Shown here piece by piece: positions 1-5,395 of a stretch of DNA of 6,260 nucleotides (position 1 is the stretch's first letter; every line of letters begins with the position of its first letter). The notes beneath the pieces were generated by a model, which saw only the letters and a list, made by a program, of their open reading frames with translations, did no database searches and was not told the DNA's origin. Position numbers and translations under genes: made by a program. The DNA is from a virus (lineage: Duplodnaviria; Heunggongvirae; Uroviricota; Caudoviricetes), in the IMG/VR virus record IMGVR_UViG_2737471848_000012; one strand, written 5' to 3'.

Positions 1-82
1 AGTCATATTCGCCCTGACTTTCCAGAACCATACGGGCTGCCCGTTGACGGACTTCAGGGGAAAAACGAGTATTTTTAGTCAT
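1..82 (-). CDS. IS3-family transposase OrfA, N-terminal fragment (partial, 5' end only)
   Basis: Minus-strand ATG at 82..80 translates as MTKNTRFSPEVRQRAARMVLESQGEYD..., matching from memory the N-terminus of IS629/IS1203-type OrfA. RBS GAGG lies upstream (reverse complement of 91-97). The ORF is open to the window edge. Confidence 0.8.
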   Translation of the reverse strand, partial: MTKNTRFSPEVRQRAARMVLESQGEYD

Positions 83-136
83 CCTGTTTACCTCTTTCTC
101 AGGGAGTTTAGTCTCCAGGATTCCCGGGGCGGTTCA
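1..136 (-). mobile_element. Left terminal region of an IS3-family insertion sequence (IS629/IS1203-like); the element continues beyond the window start
   Basis: Reverse complement of 121-136 is TGAACCGCCCCGGGAA, the TGAACCG-type terminal inverted repeat I recall for IS3-family elements. The orfA start codon lies about 55 bp inside this end. The 3 bp at 137-139 (tcg) could be a target-site duplication, but the other end is not in the window. Confidence 0.75.
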
Positions 137-155
137 TCGCGCCCTCAACAATGAG

Positions 156-295
156 TTTTGTGATGCGGTGCCTGGTGCCTCCAGGTGACGTTAACCAGTT
201 AACAATTAACGCCGGATACAGAGAATCCACCCATAACACTGTTTTTGGTTTTAACTGTTCCGCGTGCGCTTAGCCGCATTCACCGCATCACAAAA
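156..295. repeat. 15-bp perfect inverted repeat (156-170 TTTTGTGATGCGGTG; 281-295 CACCGCATCACAAAA) bracketing a 110-bp segment
   Basis: Direct read: the two 15-mers are exact reverse complements. The bracketed segment contains the palindrome CCTGG-N5-CCAGG (171-185) and two GTTAAC sites (190-195, 198-203). Confidence 0.6.
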
Positions 296-303
296 TTCAC
301 TTT

Positions 304-361: not shown

Positions 362-702
362 ATTGATAACAGAGGGCGTTGCAGCGGGGTTGTCACTTAA
401 GCGTATGGTCAACCTGACAACCCGGTGTCCTCAACGGGGGAAGGAATAACCCCGCCATACTTACCGCCGCGCCATTTCGCGGATTGCCACAACCGGAAGC
501 GCACGGTCGACGAAAATTTAACGACAGGCTATCTATGAACCAGCTACCTCGCCGTGCGCTTTCGCGTTATGGTCTGACTTTTCAGGGAAATATCCTTTCA
601 GTAAACTGTCAGTGCCGGATGCTCACCCGTGTCCGGCGCACGCACTCCACCTCACCCGTGGAGAACTCCTTAATTACCAACCTTAGCTTCGTTGGTTAGC
701 TA

Positions 703-4645: not shown

Positions 4646-5395
4646 ATGGAAACTGTATTGCATGCACTGAAAGCGATGGGAAAAGCCAATTCTGTTGAAC
4701 TGGCGGCGCGGCTTGATATCAGCCGTGAAGAAGTTCTTAACGAACTGTGGGAACTCAAAAAAAATGGCGTTGTTGATAAAACGGGTCACACCTGGTTTCT
4801 GGCTGTCGAAGGTGAAGCCGGGGTAACCGAAGGGCAGGCACTACAACCTGAAGCGCCGGATGTGGTAACCGAAGAGGTCGCTCCAAAAGTTACCGCAGAC
4901 ATGATGGTTGAGTTTATCGGTCAGGATGGTGCTAAAACGTGTGAGGAACTGGCGGGTAAGTTCGGCGTCAGTACTCGCAAGGTTGCTTCCACGCTGGCGG
5001 TGGTAACCGCAACGGGGCGGCTGGCACGCGTTAATCAGAACGGTAAATTTCGTTACTGCATGTCGGGGGGTAATTTACCAGCAGATCCGAAAGCCGCGCC
5101 GGTAACGAAAAATGATGGTAAGGCCTTTCCTCAGCCAGCAGGTGCTGCGTTACCAGTCCGGGAAGCCGCAACACAGGAAGAAATTAAAACAGAAACTGTG
5201 GCGGACATTGTGCAGCCGTTGCTATCGTTTACCGAAACGCAAGCAGATGAGCTGATTTTTCCGTCCCTGCGCAGGGCGAAAAGTGATGTTCAGAAGTGGG
5301 AGCGAGTCTGCGCCGCGCTGCGGGAGCTGAACAAGCACCGGGATATTGTTCGACAGATTACTGATTCTTCCCGCCGTGTTGTATCGGAAAAGTGA
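4646..5395 (+). CDS. 249-aa prophage protein with two predicted winged-helix-like domains joined by Pro/Ala/Glu-rich linkers (DUF1627/YdaW-like?); function unknown
   Basis: ATG at 4646 with RBS GAGGTAA. HTH-like segments SVELAARLDISREEVLNELWELKKNGVV and CEELAGKFGVSTRKVASTLAVVTATGRLARV. Family assignment is tentative and from memory. Confidence 0.5.
   Translation: METVLHALKAMGKANSVELAARLDISREEVLNELWELKKNGVVDKTGHTWFLAVEGEAGVTEGQALQPEAPDVVTEEVAPKVTADMMVEFIGQDGAKTCEELAGKFGVSTRKVASTLAVVTATGRLARVNQNGKFRYCMSGGNLPADPKAAPVTKNDGKAFPQPAGAALPVREAATQEEIKTETVADIVQPLLSFTETQADELIFPSLRRAKSDVQKWERVCAALRELNKHRDIVRQITDSSRRVVSEK

Follow-up and report, generated by a model that had tools for sequence, protein, structure and literature searches.

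How is a 53-nt small RNA released from a polycistronic prophage transcript, and which parts of the untranslated RNA ahead of it take part in that release? The question is relevant for DicF, which blocks cell division, rewires metabolism and raises virulence gene expression in EHEC, so that the amount produced from silent prophages matters. Here we consider it for a window of 6,260 nt (the whole stretch of viral DNA analysed; IMG/VR record IMGVR_UViG_2737471848_000012) that carries DicF together with a long spacer upstream. An earlier note, made from the letters of the window alone, had drawn attention to two small hairpins in this spacer, at 645-663 and 676-696, as candidate processing determinants or a source of additional small RNAs. 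We argue below that attention belongs on a long conserved stem and a conserved leader, and not on these two small hairpins.

The minus strand of the window represents the early-left operon of a Qin-like lambdoid prophage (Table 1). The open reading frame at 703-921 is annotated as ydfC ('protein YdfC') in thousands of E. coli genomes, and the small RNA itself is recognised over its full length by the Rfam DicF family (76.7 bits against a gathering score of 48, E = 3.5e-16). The Rfam alignment and the published 53-nt form place the DicF 5' end at 361, with the 3' end at 305-309; taken with the position of the ydfC stop codon, this delimits a spacer of ~340 nt at 362-702, untranslated and situated between ydfC and DicF just as the earlier note had it. 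A search of the whole window against Rfam 15 at E <= 1 returned no family within 362-702; the hits were DicF, a chance match to speF (4797-4902) and a match to the STnc100 small RNA between DicF and the end of an insertion sequence (157-297, minus strand), which lies below threshold (38.8 bits, gathering score 47, E = 6e-06). The initial half of this STnc100-like stretch (~252-308) is also found, in conserved form, behind almost every DicF-type terminator among the loci examined. At the other end of the operon, the 158-aa protein encoded in the repressor position is without Pfam or PHROG match at the thresholds used, and part of it resembles a helix-turn-helix.

Table 1 Features of the window discussed in the text (DNA positions; P0-P3 and H1-H4 are predicted RNA helices or hairpins)
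Feature	Position	Strand	Remarks
Repressor-position gene (158 aa)	1555-2031	minus	position where dicA or cI would be
DUF1391 gene, ydfA-like	1081-1317	minus	
ydfB-like gene	951-1088	minus	
ydfC (72 aa)	703-921	minus	last protein gene ahead of the spacer; stop codon 703-705; PHROG 1744, E = 1e-39
H1	674-698	minus	starts 5 nt past the ydfC stop; register GCUAACC / GGUUGGU (692-698 / 674-680)
H2	645-663	minus	CUCCAC-GGGUGAG-GUGGAG; inverted repeat and fold
H3	614-637	minus	GCCGGA...UCCGGC; inverted repeat; fold -11.7 kcal/mol, z = -0.55
H4	572-610	minus	CUGAC...GUCAG, three-tier; directly 5' of the long stem; -9.5 kcal/mol, z = -1.8
Long stem-loop, probable RNase III substrate	488-571	minus	arms 549-571 / 488-510; apex 511-548
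Putative RNase III cut, 5' end of 190-nt pre-DicF	494-498	minus	190 nt back from the DicF 3' end (305-309)
Pre-DicF leader	378-493	minus	closed four-helix domain (predicted); helices P0-P3
P0	486-493 / 378-385	minus	predicted fold
P1	478-482 / 467-471	minus	predicted fold
P2	450-456 / 433-439	minus	predicted fold
P3	415-423 / 387-395	minus	predicted fold
RNase E site, AAU↓UUU	359-364	minus	cut between 362 and 361; DicF 5' end
DicF sRNA (53 nt)	309-361	minus	includes intrinsic terminator; Rfam RF00039 match 309-360

The region has a well-studied counterpart. Positions 300-930 of the window are found in 4341 of 5426 complete E. coli genomes and are 97.9% identical over 631 nt to K-12 W3110, where the gene order is ydfA-ydfB-ydfC, 340 nt of spacer, dicF and dicB. 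The comparison with the Qin spacer that the earlier note had proposed thus reveals a homologous precursor, with ydfC upstream and DicF downstream, and with the same spacer length and every structural element described in this article; the differences amount to a few point changes, two of which fall within the hairpin 676-696. In the surrounding operon, the upstream repressor gene is unlike dicA and an IS3-family element has inserted 2 nt before the dicB start-codon position. Window positions 1-135 are the end of this element, which has 100% identical copies in many E. coli chromosomes and plasmids, and homology to K-12 resumes at 136; in this strain DicF has been kept and dicB has been severed from the operon. 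In K-12, DicF derives from a polycistronic transcript initiated at dicBp, without an internal promoter having been found; cleavage by RNase III creates the 5' end of pre-DicF (190 nt), and RNase E generates the 53-nt DicF (PMC10448788). Both enzymes had been named correctly in the earlier note. Bands of ydfA mRNA are lost in a K-12 rnc mutant (PMC10448788), and RNase III cleavage hence appears to stabilise the upstream RNA. The DicF-precursor region has been called the ydfC 3' UTR (PMC9438474) and a long untranslated region (PMC5069750). The stretch 362-702 is therefore the 3' UTR of ydfC, i.e. the precursor part of a ydfABC-dicF transcript of a Qin-like prophage, and its role as a DicF-processing region is already known, having been published for the 98% identical K-12 sequence. 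What can be added is which of its parts are likely to do the work.

The spacer shows little sign of coding for protein. The only minus-strand ATG codons in 362-702 are at 475 (opening 4 aa) and 458 (21 aa), and 476-702 contains none at all, in keeping with the earlier statement that 484-700 holds no ATG-initiated ORF on this strand. The combination of start, conserved frame and family match that marks a protein-coding gene is likewise missing from the spacer as a whole, where no ATG ORF exceeds 21 aa. A small unannotated protein initiated at a non-ATG codon could be imagined, as GTG/TTG ORFs of 23-31 aa do exist on the minus strand (the longest with starts at 504, 492, 680 and 412) and a strong Shine-Dalgarno-like AAGGAG is present at 665-670; the GUG that follows AAGGAG, however, opens just 10 codons. 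Pfam gives no match for the 31-aa minus-strand ORF or for a 71-aa ORF on the plus strand of the spacer, 1-base indels (in a CCCCC/CCCC run) and block replacements fall inside the ORFs in close relatives, and neither the K-12 nor the phage Tritos record annotates a gene in the spacer, all of which renders a protein product extremely improbable. Scans of 250-1000 identified no terminator-like site on the minus strand and, at 9 of 12 consensus matches, no promoter on either strand. The sense RNA of 453-710 is G-rich (C/G ratio 0.48-0.95), which is unfavourable for Rho. A nut-like boxA/boxB arrangement was also considered and discarded because no convincing boxA is present.

Structure prediction across the spacer singles out an element that the earlier note had passed over. 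The strongest and least chance-like structure lies not at the two small hairpins but at 486-574 (-37.4 kcal/mol, z = -3.84), where the arms of a long stem form ~21 predicted base pairs in blocks of 8, 10 and 3, interrupted by one bulge, one 1x1 loop and one further bulge. RNase III substrates require roughly two helical turns (~20 bp) of duplex, and by prediction the long stem provides such a mostly continuous helix. To follow its conservation we compared 110 distinct sequences comprising DicF and 460 nt upstream, taken from one-genome-per-species contigs, IMG/VR and annotated records; the IMG/VR part comprises the first 120 matches listed per scan, and E. coli prophages dominate the sample. 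DicF, the leader and the long stem (286-582) are kept in 109 of these loci, which comprise all those of Escherichia type, and both arms of the stem persist in all 37 sequence variants, whereas the apex of ~38 nt between them is hypervariable, with at least eight unrelated versions of ~20-35 nt placed between near-identical arms. The one exception is a Salmonella locus (L012, the single one fetched), which has lost the leader and carries a homologous stem of ~20 bp only ~13 nt from DicF; its upper part differs in sequence and still pairs. Arms that are kept, an apex that is replaced and a divergent stem that still pairs are what is expected of an element selected as a duplex, such as an RNase III substrate. 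Further Salmonella-type loci, in which covariation of the long stem could be followed, were not present in the IMG/VR scans, and a BLAST search of phages gave partial matches only.

As a separate observation, the apex replacements occur in loci that are otherwise 90-99% identical; unconstrained turnover, recombination and specificity are all candidate causes.

The published K-12 data point to the same element. Measured from the DicF 3' end, a length of 190 nt, used here in place of the published coordinate 813/814, locates the RNase III-dependent end in the long stem, on its 3' arm and ~150-200 nt further downstream than the two small hairpins, the position in the present sequence being derived from a K-12 fragment length that was measured on gels. 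The sequence given in Fig. S1B of PMC10448788 begins at window position ~548, and the ladder template for primer extension (primer EM2784, same source) begins at ~525; given these starting points and the 190-nt length, the mapped cut cannot be at 645-696. The long stem 488-571 is thus the probable RNase III substrate, with a predicted cut near 494-498.

What, then, of the small hairpins? Both inverted repeats, CTCCAC 645-650 / GTGGAG 658-663 and ACCAAC 676-681 / GTTGGT 691-696, exist exactly as earlier described, and a third of the same kind is found at 614-619 / 632-637. Three perfect 6-bp repeats with loops of 3-12 nt compare with 0.82 +/- 1.1 in dinucleotide shuffles, a mild excess over chance given that 9.7% of shuffles reach three. 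Folded alone, H2 (641-667) reaches -11.7 kcal/mol with z = -2.96, better than all 200 shuffles. The region of the second repeat does form a hairpin, H1, although not the one described: on its own (672-702; -7.4 kcal/mol, z = -2.04) it adopts the register 674-680 / 692-698. In the 23 distinct sequences that contain the whole spacer the register first proposed is broken in four, the K-12 type included, and the alternative register is paired in all 23, by way of one-sided changes only. No covariation was seen in either 645-663 or 676-696 among these sequences. In H2, none of the 12 stem columns varies as against three of the seven loop columns and about a quarter of the columns in the 147 nt around it; an invariant stem with a varying loop is weak evidence of constraint, and the stems of H2 and H3, which never vary, are as such uninformative for or against structure. 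The loop of H3 also differs in sequence among relatives. In H4, 99% of cells are paired (set A3) with zero double changes, and in 27 of the 110 loci it has been swapped for an unrelated sequence that also forms a hairpin beside the long stem. A 10-nt direct repeat (plus-strand CTCACCCGTG; 622-631 and 651-660, 29 nt apart) occupies the loop and 3' arm of the neighbours H2 and H3. A loop motif that the hairpins share, CACGGGUGAG, was considered as a binding site or as a partner of the DicF loop and rejected, since the loops vary among close relatives including K-12 and the complementarity to DicF is just 6 nt.

These data weigh heavily against the proposal that the hairpins 645-663 and 676-696 are RNase III/RNase E determinants of DicF. 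The hairpins are real, 645-663 outperforms its shuffles and its stem is invariant wherever it is present; yet a stem of 6-7 bp falls far short of what RNase III needs as a substrate, and the RNase III-dependent end lies ~190 nt from the DicF 3' end, within the sequence from ~548 downwards. Neither hairpin resembles an intrinsic terminator, as the sequences that come next, AAUUAAGG and UGCGUGCG, contain no U-run, and no Rfam family is found there at E <= 1. The hairpin 676-696 is complete in 45 of the 110 loci (incomplete in 65), and 645-663 is complete in 59 and absent or partial in 51; all of these loci keep DicF and the long stem, which argues that the two hairpins are dispensable for DicF maturation. 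The proposal, also in the form in which the hairpins bound additional stable small RNAs, is accordingly very improbable as a whole, and for RNase III it is largely refuted; on additional small RNAs from the spacer in general, the sequence data are neutral. The spacer does carry the processing determinants that had been anticipated in it, but their assignment to these two hairpins is not supported, and on the sequence evidence the hairpins are at most accessory elements.

The same comparison explains their patchy distribution. Upstream of the long stem, homology between loci stops at a limited number of points, namely 582-590 (26 loci), 571 (1), 642 (13), 660 (8) and 682 (16), and it runs on into ydfC in just 45 of 110. 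In PPompW/Stx2a phages the loop of the 676-696 repeat is the exact site of a ~615-bp cassette that contains two small convergent genes, and at other junctions unrelated small genes of the opposite strand start directly at the breakpoint. Two loci (L095 and L113) have an exact 29-nt deletion between the CTCACCCGTG copies and with it have lost the hairpin 645-663. Judged by these alignments, 583-702 is a mosaic joint at which different phages attach different upstream genes to the DicF module.

Several further observations concern the related loci. The deletion in L095 and L113 is that expected from recombination or slippage between the repeat copies. In relatives, the region that separates the DicF module from the early-left genes is a cargo hot spot, with junctions at 682, 660, 642 and 582; three small genes on the opposite strand, of 77, 92 and 64 aa and mutually unrelated, and a same-strand gene of 135 aa occur there (L004 1382-2014, L006 1894-2172, L007 1902-2096). 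A motif of ~40 nt (GGATACCACC..GCCTGA.GTGGT.AAAAG) adjoins the long stem upstream in the Salmonella locus and in E. coli loci such as L010 and L033; it is absent from this window, has 92-95% identity to phage SfV and to Salmonella and Klebsiella phages, and may be a widespread element of early-left leaders. The antisense RNAs IsrK and C4 (Rfam, above gathering score) share loci with a DicF-type or leader module in L009, L155, L160 and L182, and in L009 (1087-1275) they fall within an annotated Rha-family gene, at a distance of ~230-420 nt downstream of DicF.

A recombination joint invites another explanation of the small inverted repeats, namely that they are functionless, being chance or hitch-hiking features of the place where phage modules recombine. 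The frequency of three 6-bp repeats in shuffled sequence, the breakpoints at 682, 660, 642 and 582 in or beside the hairpins, the PPompW cassette within the loop of 676-696, the loss of one hairpin by deletion between direct repeats and the absence of covariation are all in line with this idea, which is quite possible though it falls short of being the probable one: it leaves unaccounted for the contrast between the H2 stem and its variable surroundings, the alternative register of H1 that stays paired in every sequence, and the unrelated replacements that form hairpins by the long stem as well. Alternatively, the conserved part of 583-682 might act on the plus strand, as promoter and 5' leader of opposite-strand 'moron' genes, and persist in this window, where no such gene is present, as a remnant or as an antisense driver into ydfC. 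In relatives the 77-, 92- and 64-aa genes, which do not resemble one another, have their Shine-Dalgarno sequence and ATG right at the junctions 682 and 642, and the plus strand of the window has a weak promoter-like site (TTTTCA at 579-584, a 17-nt spacing and TAAACT at 602-607; 8 of 12 matches); it falls short of the 9 of 12 at which the scan of 250-1000 yields no promoter on either strand, and we regard this plus-strand function as distinctly unlikely.

Downstream of the putative RNase III cut, the precursor begins with a leader whose predicted helices P0-P3 make up the minimum-free-energy fold both when the leader is folded by itself (-45.8 kcal/mol) and when growing transcript prefixes of 125-160 nt are folded. 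P0, which closes the domain, can pair in every one (100%) of 37 distinct sequences. A double change from C:G to U:A (7 sequences) is found in it, along with U:G intermediates, and P0 was also examined in a set of 79 sequences; most of its variation consists of transitions opposite G or U that keep the pairing automatically, and the one double change could go back to just one event in the history of these closely related sequences. When pre-DicF is folded at its full length of 194 nt, the lowest energy (-69.9 kcal/mol) belongs to a structure in which the leader pairs with the DicF terminator, and the P0-closed fold lies 1.9 kcal/mol higher. ARAGORN detected no tRNA or tmRNA fold in 250-800, the leader included. 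RNase E prefers single-stranded AU-rich sites of the form RN↓WUU, a motif that AAU↓UUUC at 361/362 fits; in the P0-closed fold this site is predicted to fall between P0/P3 and the DicF terminator. For K-12, the dependence of the 53-nt DicF on RNase E has been published (PMC10448788). Because the 5' strand of P0 also makes up the base of the RNase III stem on its 3' side, the two pairings are mutually exclusive.

The leader is not confined to DicF. As a module (window 370-493; 89.5% identity) it recurs in phages that are without DicF by Rfam, among them cdtI and Stx2c phages. A 27-mer taken from it, a search that by construction fixes the conservation of P1, retrieves 40 loci in which the terminator hairpins that come next do not fit the DicF search pattern; some of these are point variants of DicF, and among the others at least eight forms differ in their 5' single-stranded region. 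Among nine representative loci, Rfam calls DicF in L009 and L012 only. From sequence, one shared leader ahead of small RNAs with different seeds looks like a family. The seven tested loci with the leader module followed by a terminator hairpin that is not DicF by Rfam are L002, L138, L142, L151, L159, L160 and L182.

We consider it very likely that the spacer is organised in three layers: the mosaic joint 583-702, the RNase III stem 488-571 and the conserved leader 378-493. The first layer, with the two hairpins originally noticed and two further small ones, would be dispensable for DicF. A cut by RNase III in the long stem would leave the upstream ydfABC RNA ending just 3' of H1-H4 (572-698), and the most plausible function of these as 3'-terminal stem-loops would be to shield the ydfABC mRNA from 3' exonucleases; they may also keep the G-rich untranslated RNA folded and thereby make it a poor substrate for Rho loading. 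A protective role at the 3' end, reasoned by analogy and from the one published observation on ydfA bands in the rnc mutant, is possible but rather unlikely. In the second layer, RNase III cleavage, which is established in K-12, would here fall in the 3' arm of 488-571 near 494-498 and produce the 190-nt pre-DicF. In the third, the first strand of the leader, GUUGUGGC, doubles as the base of the RNase III stem; cleavage would free GUUGUGGC to pair with GCUGCAAC (378-385), and closure of the leader would leave the AU-rich AAU↓UUU (361/362) exposed to RNase E, which would then yield the 53-nt DicF. The predicted folds thus suggest that, once RNase III has cut, the leader can close and the RNase E site becomes exposed. 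More tentative, and on balance unlikely, is the broader model in which the leader is a portable, self-closing four-helix domain that precedes DicF and at least eight non-DicF terminator-type small RNAs, and in which RNase III-triggered refolding makes the RNase E site accessible or governs the terminator.

Parallels exist in better-known systems. The early-left leaders of lambdoid phages, such as the N leader of lambda, carry RNase III hairpins, and the long stem shares with them a long imperfect duplex in an untranslated, leftward early transcript, the use of the host RNase III and an effect on how stable a neighbouring RNA is or how it is expressed; it differs in that the cut here generates the 5' end of a small RNA precursor instead of controlling the translation of a downstream gene. 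With the Hfq-dependent small RNAs derived from 3' UTRs (CpxQ, SdhX, SroC and MicL), DicF has in common its location at the terminator-proximal end of an mRNA and its release by RNase E at an AU-rich single-stranded site. In contrast to these, DicF involves an additional RNase III step and a structured leader of ~135 nt between the two cuts, and transcription that passes its terminator proceeds into additional genes. The RNase E cut in MicL is reported to be directed by flanking stem-loops (reference list of PMC9438474). The HK022 put RNAs offer a third comparison: they too are structured early RNAs of a lambdoid phage, ~70-120 nt in size, upstream of an intrinsic terminator that has to be read through, and a PL-like promoter is situated ~280 nt upstream of the leader module in phage cdtI. 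The put RNAs consist of two stem-loops whereas the leader has four helices, and a blastn search of the phage collection gave no HK022 record among the best 40 of 68 hits; a put-like antiterminator role for the leader is a remote lead.

The 110 loci represent a natural deletion series in which DicF always travels with ~220 nt of upstream RNA and the rest is exchangeable, and this unit of ~220 nt plus DicF defines the minimal maturation unit for experiments. The reuse of the leader ahead of other sRNA-like terminators, which we did not find described in the literature examined, is a modest lead; if the model holds, a two-nuclease maturation switch would be common to a family of phage small RNAs.
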